A stretch of DNA of 64,000 bases from Escherichia coli. GTDB lineage: Bacteria; Pseudomonadota; Gammaproteobacteria; Enterobacterales; Enterobacteriaceae. The position numbers and the translations under genes are program-made. The notes below the pieces were generated by a model that was given only the letters and a program-made list of their open reading frames with translations, searched no databases and had not been told where the DNA came from. Below, in pieces: positions 2,972 to 61,149 of this stretch; within the stretch, counting starts at the first letter, position 1, and every line of letters begins with the position of its first letter. The stretch is taken from NCBI RefSeq assembly GCF_046105845.1, contig NZ_CP151004.1, one strand, 5' to 3'.

Positions 2972-4060
2972 TCACGGCAGGCGGTGGCGAGCTTGATAAT
3001 AAGACTGCCAGTGAGCTTCTTTATGTGTGGCGACGCGCTGTTCGAAGTAACGGCGCAGACGCGCGCGATCTTCTTCGTTATCTTTGACGATGGTTCCGGC
3101 AATACAGTCCACCAGGTCGGCAGGCTCCCCCGCGCGATTCGCTAAAAACCAGGCGCGGACACCCACAGCATGGGCCACGTTAACGGCTTCAGCGGTGGAC
3201 ATAATCGCTGTCAGTGTATCCATTGACGTTTTCTTTTCGCCGTTGGCACGCAGATCGCGGAACGTGCGCACCAGTAATTCCAGTACCGCGTCAGGCACTT
3301 TATGCGGAATACCGCTATGGGCCAGCAAACGCGCCGAAGCACTGGCGACCAGTTCGAGCTCCTGGGCGAAATCCATAATCGGAAAGACAGTTTCAAAATC
3401 GAAGCGACGCTTTAGCGCAGCACTCATTTCATTGACGCCGCGATCGCGGGTATTGGCAGTGGCAATAATATTAAAGCCTTCCCGCGCATAGAGCTGACTG
3501 GCTTCACCAGTGAGTTCCGGCACCGTCATTACCCTGTCAGAAAGCATACCTAACAGACAGTCTTGTACTTCCAGCGGTGTACGCGTTATCTCTTCAAAAC
3601 GGACAATTTTGCCGTCGCGCATTCCCTGGTAAAGCGGGGCTGGGACCAGCGCTTCCGTTGACGGACCATGGTTGATAAGCAGGGCGTAGTTCCAGCCGTA
3701 CTTGATTTGATCTTCGGTGGTAGATGCGCCGCCCTGGATGGTTAACCCGGCATCGCCGCTAATAGCGGTTGCCAGTAATTCAGACAGGAGAGATTTTGCG
3801 GTACCCGGTTCCCCCACCAACATCAAACCGCGCCCGGTGGCAAGAGTGACTAACATACGTTCGACAGCGGAGGGACTAATCACCACTTTACGGCTAATAT
3901 TTTGCGCGCTATCGCCAAGGATAAAAGCACGGGCCGCAGGCAAACTTAACTGCCAACCGGGCGGGCAAGGTGCGTTATCATTTTGTTTTAATTTTGCCAG
4001 TTCATCGGCGTATAACACAGCAGCAGGCGGACGCTGCAGATGATTATTCTGCGGTGACAT
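2972..4060 (-). CDS. yehL: MoxR-like AAA+ ATPase (Walker A GEPGTAKS)
   Basis: ORF 2972..4126; 362-codon version starts MSPQNNHLQ at 4060; P-loop motif visible. Confidence 0.85.
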   Translation of the reverse strand: MSPQNNHLQRPPAAVLYADELAKLKQNDNAPCPPGWQLSLPAARAFILGDSAQNISRKVVISPSAVERMLVTLATGRGLMLVGEPGTAKSLLSELLATAISGDAGLTIQGGASTTEDQIKYGWNYALLINHGPSTEALVPAPLYQGMRDGKIVRFEEITRTPLEVQDCLLGMLSDRVMTVPELTGEASQLYAREGFNIIATANTRDRGVNEMSAALKRRFDFETVFPIMDFAQELELVASASARLLAHSGIPHKVPDAVLELLVRTFRDLRANGEKKTSMDTLTAIMSTAEAVNVAHAVGVRAWFLANRAGEPADLVDCIAGTIVKDNEEDRARLRRYFEQRVATHKEAHWQSYYQARHRLP

Positions 4061-15319: not shown

Positions 15320-16429
15320 ATGAACGAACAATCCCAGGCCAAATCACCAGAAGCCTTGCGCGCAATGGTCGCCGGGACACTGGCCAATTTTCAGCACCCA
15401 ACCCTGAAGCATAACCTCACCACGCTGAAAGCGTTGCACCATGTCGCCTGGATGGACGACACGCTGCATGTGGAACTGGTTATGCCATTCGTCTGGCATA
15501 GCGCGTTCGAAGAGTTAAAAGAGCAATGTAGCGCCGAACTGCTGCGCATCACCGGAGCGAAAGCTATCGACTGGAAACTGTCGCATAACATAGCCACTCT
15601 GAAACGCGTGAAGAATCAGCCGGGAATTAACGGCGTGAAGAACATTATCGCGGTCAGTTCCGGTAAAGGTGGCGTGGGTAAATCCTCCACGGCGGTAAAC
15701 CTGGCGTTGGCACTGGCGGCGGAAGGGGCGAAAGTCGGCATTCTGGACGCCGATATCTACGGCCCATCAATCCCTACCATGCTGGGCGCAGAAAATCAGC
15801 GTCCAACTTCGCCGGACGGTACCCATATGGCACCGATTATGTCTCATGGACTGGCAACCAATTCAATTGGTTATCTGGTCACTGACGACAATGCGATGGT
15901 GTGGCGTGGTCCGATGGCGAGCAAGGCGTTAATGCAGATGTTGCAGGAAACCTTGTGGCCGGATCTCGACTATCTGGTGCTTGATATGCCGCCAGGCACC
16001 GGTGACATTCAATTGACACTGGCACAAAACATTCCAGTAACTGGTGCGGTCGTGGTCACCACCCCACAAGACATCGCGTTGATCGATGCGAAAAAAGGCA
16101 TTGTGATGTTCGAGAAAGTCGAGGTTCCGGTGCTTGGTATTGTCGAGAACATGAGTGTGCATATTTGCAGTAACTGTGGTCACCATGAACCGATTTTCGG
16201 TACCGGTGGTGCTGAGAAACTGGCTGAAAAATACCACACACAGCTGCTGGGGCAGATGCCGTTACACATCTCCTTACGTGAGGATCTCGATAAAGGCACG
16301 CCAACGGTTATCAGCCGTCCGGAGAGCGAATTTACCGCTATCTACCGCCAGCTGGCTGACCGCGTTGCAGCTCAGCTCTACTGGCAGGGTGAAGTCATTC
16401 CAGGCGAGATTTCCTTCCGCGCGGTCTAA
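15320..16429 (+). CDS. apbC: Fe-S cluster carrier ATPase Mrp/ApbC
   Basis: 369 aa from MNEQSQAKSPEAL; P-loop SGKGGVGKS; divergent from metG. Confidence 0.95.
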   Translation: MNEQSQAKSPEALRAMVAGTLANFQHPTLKHNLTTLKALHHVAWMDDTLHVELVMPFVWHSAFEELKEQCSAELLRITGAKAIDWKLSHNIATLKRVKNQPGINGVKNIIAVSSGKGGVGKSSTAVNLALALAAEGAKVGILDADIYGPSIPTMLGAENQRPTSPDGTHMAPIMSHGLATNSIGYLVTDDNAMVWRGPMASKALMQMLQETLWPDLDYLVLDMPPGTGDIQLTLAQNIPVTGAVVVTTPQDIALIDAKKGIVMFEKVEVPVLGIVENMSVHICSNCGHHEPIFGTGGAEKLAEKYHTQLLGQMPLHISLREDLDKGTPTVISRPESEFTAIYRQLADRVAAQLYWQGEVIPGEISFRAV

Positions 16430-53689: not shown

Positions 53690-53850
53690 TAAGCCGATGA
53701 TTTCAGCGGGACGCTGAAACGGGAAAGCCCCTCCCGAGGAAGGGGCCATAAATAAGGAAAGGGTCATGATGAAGCTACTCATCATCGTGGTGCTCTTAGT
53801 CATTAGCTGGCCAGCTTACTAAGACTACCAGGGCGGGGGAAACCCCGCTC
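53690..53850 (-). ncRNA. Sib-type antisense sRNA antitoxin, copy 1 (approximate ends)
   Basis: Inferred from known ibs/sib architecture; hairpins flank the ibs ORF. Confidence 0.45.
53766..53822 (+). CDS. Ibs-family toxin peptide MMKLLIIVVLLVISWPAY
   Basis: 18-aa hydrophobic ORF with AGGAAAGGG ribosome-binding site; not in ORF track. Confidence 0.75.
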   Translation: MMKLLIIVVLLVISWPAY

Positions 53851-54019
53851 TACCCTCACTCCTGAAAGTATGCCTTCACGATAAGATTGTCAATCTGCAG
53901 GCTTTGCAGTCTGCGATCCTGCCAGCAAATATTCTTTGCGAGACGTTACGCAATAATCACACTGGAAACTATTTTATCCGCAAGTCAGCGATAGACTGCA
54001 TTCAGGGCGAAAGGAGGTA

Positions 54020-54180
54020 AGCCGACGATTTCAGCGGGACGCTGAAACGGGAAAGCCCCTCCCGAGGAAGGGGCCTTAAATAAGGAAAGGGTCATGATGA
54101 AGATACTCATCATCGTGGTGCTCTTAGTGATTAGCTACCCAGCATACTAAGACTACCAGGGCGGGGGAAACCCCGCTCTA
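54020..54180 (-). ncRNA. Sib-type antisense sRNA antitoxin, copy 2 (approximate ends)
   Basis: Inferred from repeat architecture. Confidence 0.45.
54094..54150 (+). CDS. Ibs-family toxin peptide MMKILIIVVLLVISYPAY
   Basis: Second repeat unit, same architecture. Confidence 0.75.
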   Translation: MMKILIIVVLLVISYPAY

Positions 54181-54349
54181 CCCTCACTCCTGAAATTATG
54201 CCTTCACGATAAGATTGTCAATCCGCAGGCTTTGCAGTCTGCGATCCTGCCAGCAAATATTCTTTGCGAGTCGTTACGCAATAATCACAGAGGAAACTAT
54301 TTTATTCACGCGTTAGCGATAGACTGCATTCAGGGCGAAAGGAGGTAAG

Positions 54350-54510
54350 CCGACGATTTCAGCGGGACGCTGAAACGGGAAACCCTCTCCCGGAGAAGAG
54401 GGCTTTTAATAAGGAAAGGGTTATGATGAAGCACGTCATCATACTGGTGATACTCTTAGTGATTAGCTTCCAGGCTTACTAAGAACACCAGGGGGAGGGG
54501 GAAACCTCTC
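54350..54510 (-). ncRNA. Sib-type antisense sRNA antitoxin, copy 3 (approximate ends)
   Basis: Inferred from repeat architecture. Confidence 0.45.
54423..54482 (+). CDS. ibsA: Ibs-family toxin peptide MMKHVIILVILLVISFQAY
   Basis: Third repeat unit; peptide matches recalled K-12 IbsA. Confidence 0.75.
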   Translation: MMKHVIILVILLVISFQAY

Positions 54511-54702
54511 CCTAACCCTCACTCCTGAAATTATGTCACTCCGCCCTTAGTGTCAATCGACGGCTCTCCGTTCTTGCGAGGCGAATAGCAAAATTTTCTG
54601 CGCCGCCGGGCCTAATTCTGAAAGTTTCTTCGTTTGCTCTTATTTCATTATTGCAATCGGTATGATACCGGACCTCGATAATTCTCTAAGAAAGGATTTC
54701 TT

Positions 54703-55362
54703 ATGAGCGAACAAATCACGTTTGCCACCAGCGATTTTGCCAGTAACCCGGAACCACGTTGCCCCTGCATTTTGCTGTTGGATGTTTCTGGTTCGATGAG
54801 TGGTAGACCTATTAATGAACTTAACGCCGGATTGGTTACCTTTCGCGATGAACTGCTTGCCGATTCGCTGGCCTTAAAAAGAGTGGAACTCGGCATTGTG
54901 ACGTTCGGCCCGGTGCATGTGGAACAACCCTTTACCAGCGCCGCTAATTTTTTCCCGCCCATCCTGTTTGCCCAGGGCGATACACCAATGGGCGCTGCCA
55001 TTACCAAAGCCCTGGATATGGTTGAGGAGCGCAAACGTGAGTATCGTGCAAATGGTATTTCCTATTATCGCCCGTGGATTTTCCTGATCACCGATGGCGC
55101 TCCAACCGATGAGTGGCAGGCTGCCGCCAACAAAGTGTTTCAGGGGGAAGAAGATAAGAAGTTTGCCTTCTTTACCATTGGTGTACAGGGGGCGGATATG
55201 AAGACGCTGGCACAAATCAGCGTTCGTCAGCCTTTGCCACTGCAGGGATTACAATTCCGTGAACTGTTTAGCTGGTTATCCAGTTCGCTGCGTTCGGTTT
55301 CCCGCTCCACGCCGGGAACGGAAGTTGTGCTGGAAGCGCCAAAAGGCTGGACGTCAGTGTGA
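54703..55362 (+). CDS. yegL: VWA-domain protein ([13 protein letters not shown])
   Basis: 219 aa. Confidence 0.9.
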
Positions 55363-56120
55363 GCTGGCGTCTGGTCTATGCATCAGCTGTTGGAACGTCG
55401 CACATCAGCGCGGACTTGCCTTGCCAGGATGCCTGCCAGATGCAGGTTGCCTGGCTAAATGACCAGCAGCCATTATTGACGGTATTTGTCGCTGATGGCG
55501 CAGGCAGTGTCTCGCAGGGTGGCGAAGGCGCGATGCTCGCCGTCAATGAAGCGATGGCTTATATGTCGCAAAAAGTGCAGGGTGGGGAATTGGGGCTTAA
55601 TGATGTCCTCGCCACGGATATTGTGCTGACTATTCGTCAGCGACTTTTTGCCGAGGCAGAGGCCAAAGAATTAGCGGTTCGCGATTTTGCCTGCACATTT
55701 CTGGGACTGATTTCATCGCCTGACGGCACCTTGATTATGCAGATTGGCGATGGCGGCATGGTGGTAGATTTGGGTCACGGTCTGCAATTGCCTCTCACGC
55801 CGATGGTGGGTGAATATGCCAATATGACGCACTTCATTACCGACGAAGATGCCGTTTCCAGACTGGAAACTTTCACCAGCACTGGGCGTGCGCACAAAGT
55901 TGCAGCATTTACGGATGGTATCCAGCGACTGGCGTTAAATATGCTGGATAATTCTCCTTATGTGCCTTTCTTTACCCCGTTTTTCAATGGACTGGCGTCA
56001 GCAACGCAGGAACAATTCGATTTATTACCTGAATTGTTAAAGCAGTTTTTGTCCAGCCCGGCGGTAAACGAGCGTACGGATGATGATAAAACGTTGGCAC
56101 TGGCGCTGTGGGCAGAGTGA
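55359..56120 (+). CDS. yegK: PP2C-like Ser/Thr protein phosphatase
   Basis: 253 aa, GTG start overlapping yegL stop; recalled as PphC. Confidence 0.85.
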
Positions 56121-56184
56121 GTTTCTCATGGCGGTTGAAGACAACAATTCAACCGCCAGTTTAAACAATAAATATAACGGCTGA

Positions 56185-56646
56185 TTAGCGAACTAATTTT
56201 GCTCTTAGCTCGTCGGCTTCTTCTTTTGGATAGGTGACCAATAAAGGATCAATGGTATAACCGCCGTAAATTTTATCCCCGCGTGTATACATCCAGTCTG
56301 AAATATCTTCTTTCTTGATTTTCCACTCCTGGCCATATTCTACGTTTGTAACAATACCAGGGTCATTGCTAATTACGCCAATAAACATGCCGTTAGAATA
56401 AGTGACATCCGTAAGCCAGAAATGCTCGGTTCTTCCGTGATCGGTTATCGGGGCTTTGACTGCGAAAGTATCGGCATCTTTTTTATTCATAACCTCGATG
56501 AATTTATCGGTTTCTTTCCGCGCATGTTGAATGGCGTCAGACATCGCTTGTTTATCATAACCTCCCGTCACTAACGTATCCGAAACTTCACTAAAGCCCG
56601 CGGTAGTAAAAAATAGCAGACTCAACATAAGTAATATCTTTTTCAT
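56185..56646 (-). CDS. yegJ: Secreted DUF2314-type small protein
   Basis: 153 aa with signal peptide. Confidence 0.8.
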   Translation of the reverse strand: MKKILLMLSLLFFTTAGFSEVSDTLVTGGYDKQAMSDAIQHARKETDKFIEVMNKKDADTFAVKAPITDHGRTEHFWLTDVTYSNGMFIGVISNDPGIVTNVEYGQEWKIKKEDISDWMYTRGDKIYGGYTIDPLLVTYPKEEADELRAKLVR

Positions 56647-56846
56647 CTTTTCTCCAGAATCCCTGTGTAGTAAAAGTTAGCAAAAAACCTGTGGAAGTGA
56701 ATCATTATCAGGTTGGAATTGAATTGTATCCTGATGAAATTGCATTATCATTTTTATTCTTGAGTGGGACTCTTCCAATATGGAAATAATTATAATGGGC
56801 AGTGTTATTATTCATTAAAATATAATATGACTGCCCTTGAAACATT

Positions 56847-58793
56847 ATGAAGACAAATATAAAAGTATTTACATCGACAAGTGAATTGACCACTCTCGGC
56901 CGTGAACTGGGCAAAGGTGGCGAAGGCGCGGTTTATGATATCGAGGAGTTTGTCGATAGCGTCGCTAAGATTTATCACACGCCGCCACCCGCCTTAAAAC
57001 AGGACAAACTTGCCTTTATGGCTGCGACAGCTGACGCGCAGTTGTTGAATTATGTCGCCTGGCCGCAGGCAACGCTTCACGGTGGACGAGGCGGAAAGGT
57101 TATCGGTTTTATGATGCCAAAAGTTTCTGGTAAAGAACCGATTCATATGATCTATAGCCCGGCACATCGTCGCCAGAGTTACCCTCATTGTGCGTGGGAT
57201 TTTCTACTCTATGTTGCGCGCAATATTGCTTCATCTTTTGCTACGATTCACGAGCACGGGCACGTCGTGGGTGACGTAAACCAGAACAGCTTTATGGTGG
57301 GCCGTGACAGCAAAGTGGTGTTGATTGATAGCGACTCCTTTCAGATTAACGCCAATGGCACGCTGCATTTATGCGAAGTCGGCGTGTCGCATTTTACGCC
57401 GCCAGAGCTGCAAACCTTGCCATCATTTGTCGGCTTTGAACGCACCGCGAATCACGATAATTTTGGCCTTGCGTTGCTGATTTTTCACGTCTTGTTTGGT
57501 GGGCGGCATCCTTATTCCGGTGTACCGCTTATCTCTGATGCGGGTAATGCACTGGAGACGGATATTGCCCATTTCCGTTATGCCTACGCGTCAGATAATC
57601 AGCGACGTGGTTTAAAACCGCCGCCACGATCTATTCCGCTGTCGATGTTACCGGGTGATGTTGAAGCCATGTTTCAGCAGGCATTCACGGAAAGTGGCGT
57701 GGCAACCGGGCGTCCGACGGCAAAAGCGTGGGTAGCGGCACTTGATTTACTACGCCAACAGTTAAAGAAATGTACCGTTTCGGCAATGCATGTTTACCCC
57801 GGTCATTTGACTGACTGCCCGTGGTGTGCGCTGGATAATCAAGGCGTTATCTATTTTATTGATCTCGGCGAAGAGGTCATTACCACCGGCGGTGATTTTG
57901 TGCTGGCGAAAGTCTGGGCAATGGTGATGGCGTCAGTAGCACCACCAGCATTGCAACTGCCATTACCCGATCATTTCCAGGCTGCTGGCAGGCCGCTTCC
58001 TTTAGGCCTGTTACGGCGTGAATACATCATTCTGATTGAGATCGCACTGTCAGCGTTATCGCTGTTGCTTTGCGGCCTTCAGACAGAACCGCGTTATATT
58101 ATTTTGGTTCCTGTGCTGGCGGCTATCTGGATTATTGGCAGCCTGACAAGCAAAGCGTACAAAGCAGAAATCCAGCAACGCCGTGAGGCGTTTAATCGTG
58201 CGAAAATGGACTATGACCATTTAGTCCGCCAGATCCAACAGTTGGGCGGGCTGGAAGGTTTTATCGCCAAACGGACGATGCTCGAAAAAATGAAGGACGA
58301 CATTCTTGGGTTACCGGAAGAAGAAAAGCGCGATCTGGCAGCATTTCAGGACACCGCAAGGGAACGGCAGAAGCAGAAGTTTCTGGAGGGATTTTTTATT
58401 GATGTTGCCTCTATTCCCGGCGTTGGCCCTGCGCGTAAAGCGGCGTTACGGTCCTTTGGTATTGAAACAGCGGCAGACGTTACCCGACGGAGCGTTAAGC
58501 AAGTTAAAGGTTTTGGTGATCATCTGACCCAGGCGGTTATCGACTGGAAAGCGAGTTGCGAACGCCGTTTTGTTTTCAGGCCGAACGAAGCGGTAACGCC
58601 TGCAGACAGACAAGCGGTAATGGCAAAAATGGCCGCCAAACGACATCGGCTGGAATCGGCGCTGACTGTCGGTGCGACAGAGTTGCAGCGATTCCGCCTT
58701 CATGCTCCAGCACGGACCATGCCGTTGATGGAACCGTTACGTCAGGCGGCAGAAAAACTGGCTCAGGCGCAGGCTGATTTAAGCCGTTGCTGA
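56847..58793 (+). CDS. yegI: Eukaryotic-like Ser/Thr protein kinase with C-terminal membrane/coiled-coil region
   Basis: 648 aa; glycine-rich loop LGKGGEGAVY, catalytic-loop-like GDVNQNSF. Confidence 0.85.
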   Translation: MKTNIKVFTSTSELTTLGRELGKGGEGAVYDIEEFVDSVAKIYHTPPPALKQDKLAFMAATADAQLLNYVAWPQATLHGGRGGKVIGFMMPKVSGKEPIHMIYSPAHRRQSYPHCAWDFLLYVARNIASSFATIHEHGHVVGDVNQNSFMVGRDSKVVLIDSDSFQINANGTLHLCEVGVSHFTPPELQTLPSFVGFERTANHDNFGLALLIFHVLFGGRHPYSGVPLISDAGNALETDIAHFRYAYASDNQRRGLKPPPRSIPLSMLPGDVEAMFQQAFTESGVATGRPTAKAWVAALDLLRQQLKKCTVSAMHVYPGHLTDCPWCALDNQGVIYFIDLGEEVITTGGDFVLAKVWAMVMASVAPPALQLPLPDHFQAAGRPLPLGLLRREYIILIEIALSALSLLLCGLQTEPRYIILVPVLAAIWIIGSLTSKAYKAEIQQRREAFNRAKMDYDHLVRQIQQLGGLEGFIAKRTMLEKMKDDILGLPEEEKRDLAAFQDTARERQKQKFLEGFFIDVASIPGVGPARKAALRSFGIETAADVTRRSVKQVKGFGDHLTQAVIDWKASCERRFVFRPNEAVTPADRQAVMAKMAAKRHRLESALTVGATELQRFRLHAPARTMPLMEPLRQAAEKLAQAQADLSRC

Positions 58794-58805
58794 GCCAGTT
58801 TTCAA

Positions 58806-60158
58806 TTAACGAAACACGACTTCTGCCCAGCGTGCCAGCCCGGCGGTGACGGAGCCAAAGTCATCGCCACCTGCAATCGGAATGCCCGGCAACTGTTCTG
58901 TCAGCGCTTTTTTAATCAGCGGTGAACGGGCGCTACCGCCGGTCAGATAGATAACATCCGGTTTTTCCTGGGCGTTATCCAGCGCCAGTTGCACCTGTTC
59001 CAGAATCCGCGCCAGTGGCTGGTTGAGGGCGCTTTCCAGCCCTTGCTGGCTAATCAGCGTAGCCAGTTCATCGCTGATAAACGGCAGTGAGGCGCGGGTT
59101 TCCGCTACGCTTGAAAGCGCAATTTTGCTCTCTTCTGCGCTACGTACCAGGCGATAGCTTAAACGCTGACGCCAGACTTTCTGTAACAGGGCCACTTTTT
59201 CCGGTTCGCGGGCATCGCGTACCAGATCGTTAAGCAGACGACCGTTGGCACTACTGTAGAAATCACTTTGCGCAGGTACGTCGTTGATGGCAACCGCATT
59301 CCACCACGGCAGAATCGGCAGGGCGATGCCTTTTTCGGTTTCGCCACCCATGCCCAGTAACGGCATCAGGTTTTTAAACGCCAGTGCGATATCCAGATCG
59401 TTACCGCCAATACGGCAACCACTGTGACCCAGCAGGCTGGCTTCACGATCGAGACGCGAACGCCACTGCGGCCCCATCAGCAGCAATGAACAGTCAGTCG
59501 TACCACCGCCGATATCCACCACCAGCACCCGTTTTTCTTCCTGCAAGGTGGCTTCGTAATCCAGCCCAGCCGCGACCGGCTCGTACTGGAATACCACATC
59601 CTTAAACCCGGCACGCTTTGCCGCGCGTTCCAGAATCCCTTGCGCCTGGGTGTTTGCTTCATCGCCGCCCAGCCCCTGGAAGTTGATCGGGCGACCAATC
59701 ACCGCCTGAGTAATCGCATCCGGCAGCTGCGCCTGCGCCTGCTGGCGAATGTGCAACATCATTGCGCAGACCAGATCCTCAAACAGCGCTACCTGCTGCG
59801 GTTTTAAGCCGCTGGCACCGAGGAATGATTTTGGTGATTTCACAAACCACACCTCTTCTGGATCATCAATGTACTGTGCCAGTGAGGAAAGACCGAACTG
59901 CACGCTTTTCGCCGTAACATCGATATCTTCTTCGCGGTTATAACGAATCGCCCGACGCAAAAGCGCCTGCGTTTCATCGTCGTCTGCCGGAACATCATGA
60001 TGGCGGTACAGCCATTCGCTTACCGCTTCACGCGTTGGCGCGCAAAGCATTGAAGGCAGCAGCGTGCTGTCGTTTTCCATTTTTAGCAAATGCGGTTTAC
60101 CGTCGCGCATGACCGCCACTGAACAGTTTGCTGTACCGTAATCAAAACCAATAAACAC
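58806..60158 (-). CDS. yegD: Hsp70/actin-fold ATPase (DnaK-like)
   Basis: 450 aa from GTG start (FIGFDYGTANCSVAV); GGGG ribosome-binding site upstream. Confidence 0.85.
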   Translation of the reverse strand: MFIGFDYGTANCSVAVMRDGKPHLLKMENDSTLLPSMLCAPTREAVSEWLYRHHDVPADDDETQALLRRAIRYNREEDIDVTAKSVQFGLSSLAQYIDDPEEVWFVKSPKSFLGASGLKPQQVALFEDLVCAMMLHIRQQAQAQLPDAITQAVIGRPINFQGLGGDEANTQAQGILERAAKRAGFKDVVFQYEPVAAGLDYEATLQEEKRVLVVDIGGGTTDCSLLLMGPQWRSRLDREASLLGHSGCRIGGNDLDIALAFKNLMPLLGMGGETEKGIALPILPWWNAVAINDVPAQSDFYSSANGRLLNDLVRDAREPEKVALLQKVWRQRLSYRLVRSAEESKIALSSVAETRASLPFISDELATLISQQGLESALNQPLARILEQVQLALDNAQEKPDVIYLTGGSARSPLIKKALTEQLPGIPIAGGDDFGSVTAGLARWAEVVFR

Positions 60159-60291
60159 GAAATAATCCCCATGCCGGTGAAGAAGGGGCGAGACTTTAGC
60201 GAAATGTTGCCGTCGCGACAACCGGAATATGAAAGCAAAGCGTAGCGTCTGAATAACGTTTATGCTGAAAGCGGATTAAAAAGGAGATGCG

Positions 60292-61149
60292 ATGTATACC
60301 CTGAACTGGCAGCCGCCATATGACTGGTCGTGGATGTTGGGATTTCTCGCCGCCCGTGCGGTGAACGGTGTGGAAACGGTCGCGGACAGTTATTATGCCC
60401 GTAGTCTGGCGGTGGGCGAATATCGCGGCGTGGTGACTGCTATTCCGGATATAGCCCGCCATACTCTGCACATAAATTTAAGTGCAGGTTTAGAACCTGT
60501 TGCCGCAGAGTGTCTGGCGAAAATGAGCCGCCTGTTTGATCTGCAATGTAACCCGCAGATTGTTAACGGTGCGTTGGGCAAGTTAGGCGCGGCGCGGCCC
60601 GGATTGCGTTTACCCGGCAGTATTGATGCTTTTGAGCAGGGCGTGCGGGCGATTTTAGGCCAACTGGTGAGCGTGGCGATGGCGGCAAAATTGACCGCCA
60701 GAGTGGCACAGCTTTATGGCGAACGGCTGGATGATTTTCCGGATTATGTCTGCTTCCCCACGCCTCAGCGGCTGGCTGCAGCCGACCCGCAGGCATTAAA
60801 AGCGTTAGGTATGCCGTTGAAACGGGCAGAGGCACTGATTCATCTGGCAAATGCGGCGCTGGAGGGCACCTTATCAATGACAATTCCGGGCGACGTAGAG
60901 CAAGCGATGAAAACGCTGCAAACTTTTCCGGGTATCGGGCGCTGGACGGCGAATTATTTCGCCTTACGTGGCTGGCAGGCGAAAGATGTTTTCCTGCCGG
61001 ATGATTATCTGATTAAACAGCGATTTCCGGGAATGACACCGGCACAAATCCGCCGTTATGCCGAACGCTGGAAGCCCTGGCGTTCTTATGCGCTGTTGCA
61101 TATCTGGTATACGGAAGGCTGGCAACCAGACGGAACGGACGAATTGTAG
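60292..61149 (+). CDS. alkA: 3-methyladenine DNA glycosylase II
   Basis: 285 aa from MYTLNWQPPYDWSWMLGFLAARAV. Confidence 0.95.
   Translation: MYTLNWQPPYDWSWMLGFLAARAVNGVETVADSYYARSLAVGEYRGVVTAIPDIARHTLHINLSAGLEPVAAECLAKMSRLFDLQCNPQIVNGALGKLGAARPGLRLPGSIDAFEQGVRAILGQLVSVAMAAKLTARVAQLYGERLDDFPDYVCFPTPQRLAAADPQALKALGMPLKRAEALIHLANAALEGTLSMTIPGDVEQAMKTLQTFPGIGRWTANYFALRGWQAKDVFLPDDYLIKQRFPGMTPAQIRRYAERWKPWRSYALLHIWYTEGWQPDGTDEL

Follow-up and report, generated by a model that had tools for sequence, protein, structure and literature searches.

The association of VWA, PP2C and kinase genes has been described as the "TerY-P triad" by Anantharaman, Iyer & Aravind (2012), as relayed in PMC11090510 and PMC4978471. 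According to PMC11090510, a zinc ribbon is present on the kinase of those triads that are associated with ter loci or with CoCoNuT systems. The stand-alone TerY-P modules of Gao et al. (2020) have a kinase with an OB-fold and are reported to defend against T7-like phages (PMC7699616 and PMC11090510). A TerY-P variant from P. aeruginosa, missed by both PADLOC and DefenseFinder, protects against Autographiviridae without cell death (PMC10889362). Here we study three genes, yegL, pphC (yegK) and yegI, found on a 64,000-nucleotide stretch of the Escherichia coli contig NZ_CP151004.1 (assembly GCF_046105845.1), hereafter the window. The comparison of their products with the classic triad, of which all three are distant homologues, indicates that yegL-pphC-yegI is a divergent and self-contained member of the TerY-P type. 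A preliminary description, made from the sequence of the window alone, had presented these genes together with yegJ and yegD as a eukaryotic-like signalling cluster lying beside type I toxin modules. It mentioned neither that the triad is of a named kind nor that both of its enzymes had already been characterised. The genes are not new: both enzymes had been published before, and the combination of VWA, PP2C and kinase is an architecture that already has a name.

Conservation of the triad

The conservation of the locus was studied in a taxonomic scan that included one genome per species. Relatives of YegI were found in at least 536 genomes, and the best 80 loci were analysed by searching their flanks with hidden Markov models (HMMs) built from the YegL and YegK alignments. 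These 80 loci come from Gamma-, Beta- and Alphaproteobacteria, Desulfobacterota, Planctomycetota, Acidobacteria, Actinobacteria, Paenibacillus, Chlorobi and Synergistetes, and also from methanogenic Archaea (Methanoregula), for a total of about ten bacterial phyla plus Archaea. In 78 of the 80 loci the gene immediately before the kinase encodes a PP2C, and a VWA gene is found in 74, with the order VWA-PP2C-kinase wherever the contig allows it to be read. The six loci without a VWA hit correspond to four contig ends and to two cases (L035 and L082) in which the VWA gene has been displaced by an insertion. No fourth conserved gene emerged when all flanking open reading frames (ORFs) were clustered, since every other family was present in at most 11 of the 80 loci. 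None of the 77 loci from outside Escherichia has a YegD-like gene beside the kinase (3/80 in total, all of them from Escherichia), and YegJ-like genes are missing from the flanks of all 80. The co-conservation of the three genes outside E. coli is thus nearly absolute among these species-level loci, as the preliminary description had proposed when it called the triad a recurring architecture; its inclusion of yegD and yegJ in the same cluster is not supported by these counts. That description had made its interpretation depend on the joint occurrence of the three genes outside E. coli and on the activity of the kinase and the phosphatase. The former is borne out by the scan and the latter by published work, in which both enzymes are active in vitro (bioRxiv 303594, bioRxiv 819920). 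The functional unit is made up of the three genes yegL-pphC-yegI, not of five.

The ORF listing and the comparison with E. coli genomes place the triad in the order mdtB-mdtA, three ibs/Sib modules, yegL, pphC, yegJ, yegI, yegD, alkA and dgcE. The ORFs and the RefSeq annotation of E. coli agree on the positions that had been given for the five genes (VWA, PP2C, DUF2314, kinase and Hsp70-like), and the preliminary account of what the locus contains is confirmed in substance. The locus is present in 5,415 of 5,426 complete RefSeq E. coli genomes. The best identity of any of these genomes to positions 54000-61000 of the window (7 kb) is only 98.2%; the window therefore belongs to an E. coli lineage without a representative among them. 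The three triad genes evolve under purifying selection, with ratios of nonsynonymous to synonymous substitution rates (dN/dS) of 0.03-0.17 across Escherichia species, values on which pseudogene status was rejected. Promoter and terminator scans of the locus gave a performance equal to or below that obtained with shuffled sequence.

The three proteins and their relationship to TerY-P systems

The first gene, yegL (54703..55362, forward strand), encodes a 219-residue cytoplasmic TerY-type VWA protein (Pfam VWA, E 7e-10). Its metal-ion-dependent adhesion site (MIDAS) is complete: D27-x-S29-x-S31, T94 and D131 are all invariant in the YegL alignment (A2), the DxSxS motif (DVSGS) being encoded at 54781..54795 on the forward strand. 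The N-terminal motif NPEPRCPC is also invariant and a Ser-rich tail is conserved in this alignment, in which identity to YegL ranges from 61 to 85% across Beta- and Gammaproteobacteria and Rhizobium plasmids. The search of the PDB with the YegL sequence returned only a marginal match, to the VWA domain of ITIH4. When E. coli is compared with Betaproteobacteria, identity is 77-85% for the VWA protein, 62-64% for the PP2C and 57-60% for the kinase (alignments A2, A3 and A1, respectively). The VWA protein is therefore conserved far more strongly than its two enzymes, and it also has the lowest dN/dS within Escherichia (0.03-0.08).

The second gene, pphC (55359..56120, forward strand), encodes a 253-residue PP2C-type Ser/Thr phosphatase. 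Its GTG start codon overlaps the yegL stop in the letters GTGA; the preliminary description had called the two genes translationally coupled. The match to Pfam PP2C_2 (E 6e-52) and the conserved metal-binding aspartates assign PphC to the PP2C (PPM) fold; in the family alignment, D46 and DDD241-243 are invariant and D186 is conserved. PphC has been shown to be active as a phosphatase, with a dependence on Mn and with YegI as a substrate in vitro, and a D46N mutant has been reported (bioRxiv 303594 / J Bacteriol 2018). Two E. coli strains deserve mention with respect to this gene. In E. coli E69 (L040), yegK (region 2980-3741) has 81% nucleotide identity to the window and a synonymous divergence (dS) of 0.78, whereas the flanking yegL and yegI are 93-94% identical, which suggests a recombinational allele replacement limited to the phosphatase gene. 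In E. coli 510016 (L002, 3806-6817), IS1 copies disrupt pphC and fill the position of yegJ, a decay of the triad in one strain in which the VWA ORF is annotated as an extended 251-residue protein.

The third gene, yegI (56847..58793), encodes a 648-residue membrane Ser/Thr kinase and lies on the forward strand, as do the domain coordinates given below. It was modelled with AlphaFold2 (AF2) from a 57-sequence family alignment (A1), with a mean predicted local distance difference test score (pLDDT) of 94.1 and a predicted template modelling score (pTM) of 0.81. Residues 1-304 (56847..57758) form a divergent Hanks-type kinase domain according to this alignment and to Foldseek, in which the N-terminal half of the model superposes on the kinases PknB, CaMKII and BRAF with target template modelling (TM) scores of 0.66-0.73. 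The residues invariant in the family include K41, D143 and N145, with GDVNQ replacing HRD, and D161-S-D163-S164, with DSD replacing DFG. The assignment to the Hanks type is based on the bilobal fold together with the invariant catalytic K41, D143 and D161. Pfam Pkinase has no match in YegI, although it is recorded for some of its relatives, and the PDB sequence search produced marginal matches only (NleH1 and the N-terminal domain of Rad51). Published biochemistry shows YegI to be an active Ser/Thr kinase that prefers Mn and whose VGD/DSD motifs are atypical (bioRxiv 819920 / FEBS Lett 2020). It autophosphorylates serines of its activation loop with second-order kinetics, and its K39D and D141N mutants (REL606 numbering) are dead (bioRxiv 819920).

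The kinase domain is followed by a zinc knuckle (residues 306-331, 57762..57839) with the invariant pattern C309-x5-H315-x8-C324-P-W-C327, which the AF2 model builds as a β-hairpin plus the N-terminus of a helix. A transmembrane helical hairpin is predicted at residues 391-437 (58017..58157) from hydropathy and from the AF2 helices 391-411 and 417 onward. This membrane segment had been called C-terminal in the preliminary description; it lies in the middle of the protein. A two-pass inner-membrane topology with both termini cytoplasmic has been established with PhoA-LacZ fusions (bioRxiv 819920). The remainder of YegI (residues 438-647, 58158..58787) is predicted to be a cytoplasmic antiparallel coiled-coil arm with halves at 438-513 and 585-647, the latter being the C-terminal helix of the AF2 model. 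Between them lies a putative double helix-hairpin-helix module, (HhH)2, at residues 517-573, with the motifs GVGPARKAALRSFGIETAADV and VKGFG. Residues 517-553 match Pfam HHH_5 with an E-value of 7.6e-4, and the other supporting profile matches are weak.

The YegI family comprises 3,193 cluster representatives at 50% identity (E <= 1e-30). Most of the top 150 representatives have about 645 residues and the same architecture as YegI. About a quarter of them keep the kinase and the zinc knuckle (residues 1-385) and continue into other, longer C-termini for total lengths of 700-1158 residues (e.g. P0123, P0149, P0164, P0172, P0213 and P0231), some of them with LmuB/JetC-like coiled-coil matches. 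These different C-termini beyond a shared kinase and knuckle make the post-knuckle region look like an exchangeable module.

All three proteins have homologues in the ter-linked triads. A tblastn search matched YegL to the three TerY paralogues of ter plasmids with 28% identity (E about 1e-10; 2,331 plasmids), and YegK has 28% identity to the ter-plasmid PP2C (E 1e-5). The YegI family profile aligns to the ter-plasmid kinase over residues 5-337 (hhalign probability 98.9%, E 2e-17), a stretch that includes the knuckle (CPWC in YegI, CPYC in the plasmid kinase). The ter locus of a Salmonella IncHI plasmid is arranged as VWA-TerD-VWA-TerY-C-PP2C-kinase. The E. coli locus thus possesses three hallmarks of a TerY-P triad in the sense of Anantharaman et al., namely a TerY-type VWA protein with a MIDAS, the operon order VWA-PP2C-kinase and a zinc knuckle right after the kinase. 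For a fourth, the company of ter genes or of genes for DNA processing and restriction, the picture is mixed: ter genes were seen at no locus, and restriction or defence genes accompany about half of the non-Escherichia loci but not the one in E. coli. The OB-fold that PMC11090510 gives for the kinase C-terminus is not found in YegI, which has a transmembrane hairpin, a coiled coil and an (HhH)2 module. Membership in the curated TerY-P family of Gao et al. and PADLOC was rejected because of this missing OB-fold and the lack of an HMM match. Since all three proteins are homologous and in the same order, yet have neither the PADLOC match nor the OB-fold, the locus was filed as a divergent TerY-P member. 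PADLOC also gave no TerY-P match for ten family kinases with other C-termini. A direct comparison with the published P. aeruginosa variant was attempted through its primers, which had no exact match in viral or metagenome collections and only chance matches with four mismatches in the loci compared; the top 120 relatives retrieved with a YegI homologue from Pseudomonas included none from P. aeruginosa.

The closest described systems can be set against the E. coli triad as follows. The ter-locus TerY-P shares with it the gene order, the TerY-type VWA, the PP2C and the kinase with its zinc knuckle. In contrast, the E. coli triad has a single small VWA protein without the TerY-C metal-binding domain and a shorter PP2C (253 vs 577 residues), its kinase adds the transmembrane hairpin, the coiled-coil arm and the (HhH)2 module, and it moves as a stand-alone unit without terZABCDE/TerD neighbours. 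No ter genes (terZABCDE, TerD, TerC) adjoin triads of this type in about 90 loci. The TerY-P modules of Gao et al. (2020) and of P. aeruginosa (Costa et al. 2024) resemble it in being stand-alone three-gene cassettes of defence islands whose kinase has a putative nucleic-acid-binding C-terminus, but this C-terminus is an OB-fold in the Gao kinase (PMC11090510) and a zinc knuckle, a membrane hairpin and HhH motifs in YegI. The TerY-P of CoCoNuT types II and III-A (Bell et al. 2024) likewise has a C-terminal zinc ribbon fused to the kinase and a VWA protein with a complete MIDAS; nevertheless, no CnuB/C/H/E or McrBC genes stand beside the YegI-type triads in the loci examined, and YegI has the extra membrane and HhH parts.

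More distant likenesses concern the kinase and the phosphatase. The pairs PknB-PstP and PrkC-PrpC are also composed of a co-encoded kinase and PP2C with matching folds, and in them the autophosphorylation of the activation loop is reversed by the partner. YegI differs from their kinases in having no extracytoplasmic PASTA or other sensor, in its atypical GDVNQ/DSD motifs and in its obligatory VWA partner. The single-gene defence kinases (PD-T4-6 and Stk2-like) are also Ser/Thr kinases, and HMM comparison finds them weakly similar in the catalytic core (E 1e-4 to 3e-8); yet they lack the VWA and PP2C partners and their similarity to YegI is confined to this generic core.

Acquisition of the cassette and its neighbouring genes

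The corresponding region of Salmonella and Citrobacter reads udk-dgcE-alkA-yegD-ibs-mdtABC and has no triad. The alignment of the window to these genera ends after '...CTTGCGAGGCG' (about 54583) and restarts at the yegD stop codon (58806), a synteny that makes the triad an insertion between the Sib/ibs module and yegD. The segment present in Escherichia and absent from the syntenic region of both genera spans about 54584..58805 (forward strand), including a later yegJ insertion. The closest YegI outside Escherichia, from Klebsiella spallanzanii, has 62% identity and lies at a different locus, and the betaproteobacterial copies have 57-60%. Megaplasmids of Pseudomonas and plasmids of Agrobacterium and Rhizobium also carry full-length homologues. 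Judging from these comparisons, the triad is a horizontally acquired cassette that entered an ancestor of Escherichia.

The neighbours on both sides have another history. The yegD gene (58806..60158, reverse strand, convergent with yegI) encodes an Hsp70/actin-fold ATPase (NCBIfam PRK11678, an Hsp70-like chaperone, E 5e-244) outside the triad. Its product is 88-90% identical in Salmonella and Citrobacter, and such a distribution marks it as a vertically inherited, ancestral enterobacterial neighbour. On the other side, three tandem type I modules of ibs toxin and Sib antitoxin occupy positions 53751-54556 (Rfam SIB_RNA, 140-150 bits each). The copy number of these modules varies, with one in Salmonella and Citrobacter, two in CFT073 and four in strain CB209. 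The adjacency of the triad to type I toxin modules described previously is thus correct, but it does not make them parts of one system, since the ibs/sib neighbourhood only marks the landing site of the cassette. A functional tie of either yegD or the ibs/sib toxins to the triad was rejected on the synteny of the sister genera and the flank counts in the 80 loci.

The yegJ gene (56185..56646, reverse strand) encodes a 153-residue DUF2314 protein (Pfam, E 3e-25) with a signal-peptide-like N-terminus, MKKILLMLSLLFFTTAGF, and is also outside the conserved triad. Comparison with the CFT073 locus (L009) shows that it is carried by an AT-rich segment of about 786 bp (56112..56897, 36-42% GC). With respect to CFT073, this segment rewrites pphC over its three final codons (…MWLP* to …LWAE*) and yegI over its initial ~17 (MKPTLYTATGECVTP to MKTNIKVFTSTSELTTL). 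Both frames remain open, but the ATGA-coupled pphC-yegI junction that is usual in E. coli is broken and yegI receives a separate AT-rich upstream region. On this comparison, yegJ is a later, secondary insertion into the triad. The form with yegJ is found in 1,901 to 1,933 genomes, about 35% of the 5,415 E. coli genomes with the locus. Previous work had noted yegJ between pphC and yegI in K-12-like strains only, and the ATGA overlap in B strains and O157 (bioRxiv 303594, bioRxiv 819920). In a two-hybrid screen YegJ binds the N-terminal half of RNase E, and yegJ overexpression induces yegD (PMC13232886).

Genomic contexts and possible function

About 26 non-Escherichia contexts were sampled, 11 of them annotated with Pfam and 15 chosen for their taxonomic spread. 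Known defence genes lie within 9 kb of the triad in eight of the 11 annotated contexts. These contain SNase/HIT/ScoMcrA-NOV_C/MazG/SLFN-helicase genes with BrxR and JetB (L003); GmrSD, SymE and a type I restriction-modification (RM) system (L004); AbiH, a KAP NTPase and a Tn7-like element (L006); a type I RM system with Mrr (L008); DUF262, UvrD and Hxs (L011); KwaA, a giant helicase, an MmeI-like RM system and Nmad2/3 (L092); ScoMcrA, PLD and Hxs (L094); and QatABCD directly downstream of the triad, with Mrr (L095). In the 15 further loci, six of the 30 large flanking ORFs sampled encode full-length JetC, Avs2, HsdR, a C5-methyltransferase, GajA and PDC-S01. Defence genes (Wadjet, Avs2, Gabija, QatABCD and restriction systems) are present in about half of the non-Escherichia contexts examined, a frequency that we would expect to be well above that of random loci; the argument is one of guilt by association.

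Some of these contexts have features of their own. A His-Xaa-Ser cluster (HxsABC-type, with two radical-SAM maturases) is found just upstream of the triad on two unrelated replicons, a Rhizobium rhizogenes plasmid (L011, 1002-5503) and a Noviherbaspirillum-like contig (L094, 1947-5524), and could be either a recurrent partner or a neighbouring island gene. In Pseudomonas citronellolis (L092, 11021-12486), Nmad3 and Nmad2 directly follow the kinase on the same strand, within the island that holds KwaA and the MmeI-like RM system. The Pseudomonas megaplasmid pQBR103 (L010) encodes a second, longer helix-hairpin-helix-domain-containing protein about 6.6 kb downstream of the triad (15534-15917; the gene spans 184629-186851 of the record).

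From its family membership and these contexts, we lean towards the view that the triad is a defence-type phospho-switch of the stand-alone TerY-P kind, probably directed against phages or mobile DNA. Experiments by others provide the starting point for how such a switch might operate. They show that YegI is an inner-membrane protein whose two ends face the cytoplasm and that it phosphorylates its activation-loop serines in trans, with Mn preferred; PphC, which strips those phosphates in vitro, would keep the switch off. The HhH arm might then bind DNA at the membrane, or the MIDAS of YegL might capture a ligand, and either event would cluster and activate the kinase. YegI would in turn phosphorylate YegL, with the conserved Ser-rich tail as a possible site, and/or targets of foreign or host origin, and the invading phage or mobile element would thereby be blocked until PphC returns the switch to its off state. 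Endogenous DNA damage increases when YegL or YegI is overproduced (bioRxiv 354589), which fits a DNA-proximal activity. Mutations in yegI are also mentioned as recurring in long-term evolution lines (cited in bioRxiv 303594).

Several observations weigh against a role in defence. No link between yegI and phages and no phage phenotype was found in the literature searched. The triad is carried by both E. coli B and K-12, the strains classically used as permissive hosts for T1-T7. About half of the contexts have no known defence gene (e.g. L007, L093, L049, L071 and L080), and the flanks of the triad in E. coli are not a defence island. Its near-universality and stable placement in Escherichia are unusual for a defence system, and the DNA binding of the HhH module is predicted from weak profile matches. 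When all five proteins of the window were submitted to PADLOC, YegL only reached an E-value of 0.013 against TerY, YegK had no match and YegI matched only the kinase cores of PD-T4-6 and MkoA. Finally, the locus has been silent under every laboratory condition tried (bioRxiv 303594, bioRxiv 819920, PMC13232886).

The same observations can be read in other ways. YegI and PphC could be a domesticated signalling pair that tunes physiology by reversibly phosphorylating host proteins, e.g. in stationary phase or when the envelope or the DNA is stressed, with YegL as adaptor or substrate and without any conflict with phages. This is the opinion of the authors of the biochemical work, who detected weak expression in stationary phase (bioRxiv 819920), and it agrees with the presence of the locus in 5,415 of 5,426 genomes, with purifying selection, with a stable chromosomal site between housekeeping genes and with the existence of some relatives among housekeeping genes (L007). 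Nevertheless, we regard it as rather unlikely: the cassette is absent from the sister genera at the same synteny, is patchy across phyla and plasmids and is often embedded among defence genes, and loss-type mutations arise repeatedly in laboratory evolution (bioRxiv 303594). The silence of the locus may instead suggest a transcriptionally dead remnant, especially in strains split by yegJ such as that of the window. No transcription was detected under the conditions tested (bioRxiv 303594, PMC13232886), yegJ breaks the coupling of pphC and yegI, and IS1 disrupts pphC in strain 510016. Yet the three ORFs are intact with the low dN/dS reported above, the yegJ insertion left both frames open and the recombinant proteins are active (bioRxiv 819920, bioRxiv 303594), all of which makes dead cargo an improbable explanation.

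The homology of all three proteins to the triad of the ter loci, together with the complete MIDAS, evokes a sensor of metal or xenobiotic stress, in which the MIDAS of YegL would detect a metal or an oxyanion of the tellurite type and the switch would be coupled to the DNA-damage response through the HhH arm. Such a role was first proposed for TerY-P triads in general, according to PMC11090510, and the DNA damage that follows the overproduction of YegL or YegI (bioRxiv 354589) would be compatible with it. But the absence of ter genes beside these triads, the lack of the TerY-C metal-binding domain of the ter-linked protein and a setting in defence islands instead of islands of metal resistance leave it with as little probability as the dead remnant. 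The hypothesis that all five genes and the ibs/sib toxins make up a single signalling or conflict cluster can appeal to their physical adjacency and to the induction of yegD by yegJ overexpression, from which a shared pathway has been speculated by the authors (PMC13232886). It is scarcely credible and largely refuted by synteny, since yegD and ibs are ancestral neighbours in genera without the triad, yegJ is missing from 65% of E. coli and neither YegD-like nor YegJ-like genes accompany the kinase in the non-Escherichia loci.

Whichever its function, what the analysis contributes is the three-gene boundary of the unit and its description as a divergent, acquired cassette of the TerY-P type with a membrane-hairpin/HhH kinase, widespread, often located in defence islands and missed by PADLOC. 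If the role in defence that we favour is correct, the mechanism of TerY-P would become approachable in E. coli, for which purified active enzymes and topology data exist. A more specific version of this reading, possible though doubtful, is that the YegI-type kinases are membrane-anchored sensors that recognise incoming foreign DNA through their coiled-coil/(HhH)2 arm and thereby switch on a phosphorylation controlled by the VWA and PP2C proteins. In that case, the triad would be a cryptic and nearly universal immune module of E. coli, and the founding member of a defence family that is very large (more than 3000 clusters at 50% identity, from both Bacteria and Archaea) and escapes the present tools for finding defence systems.

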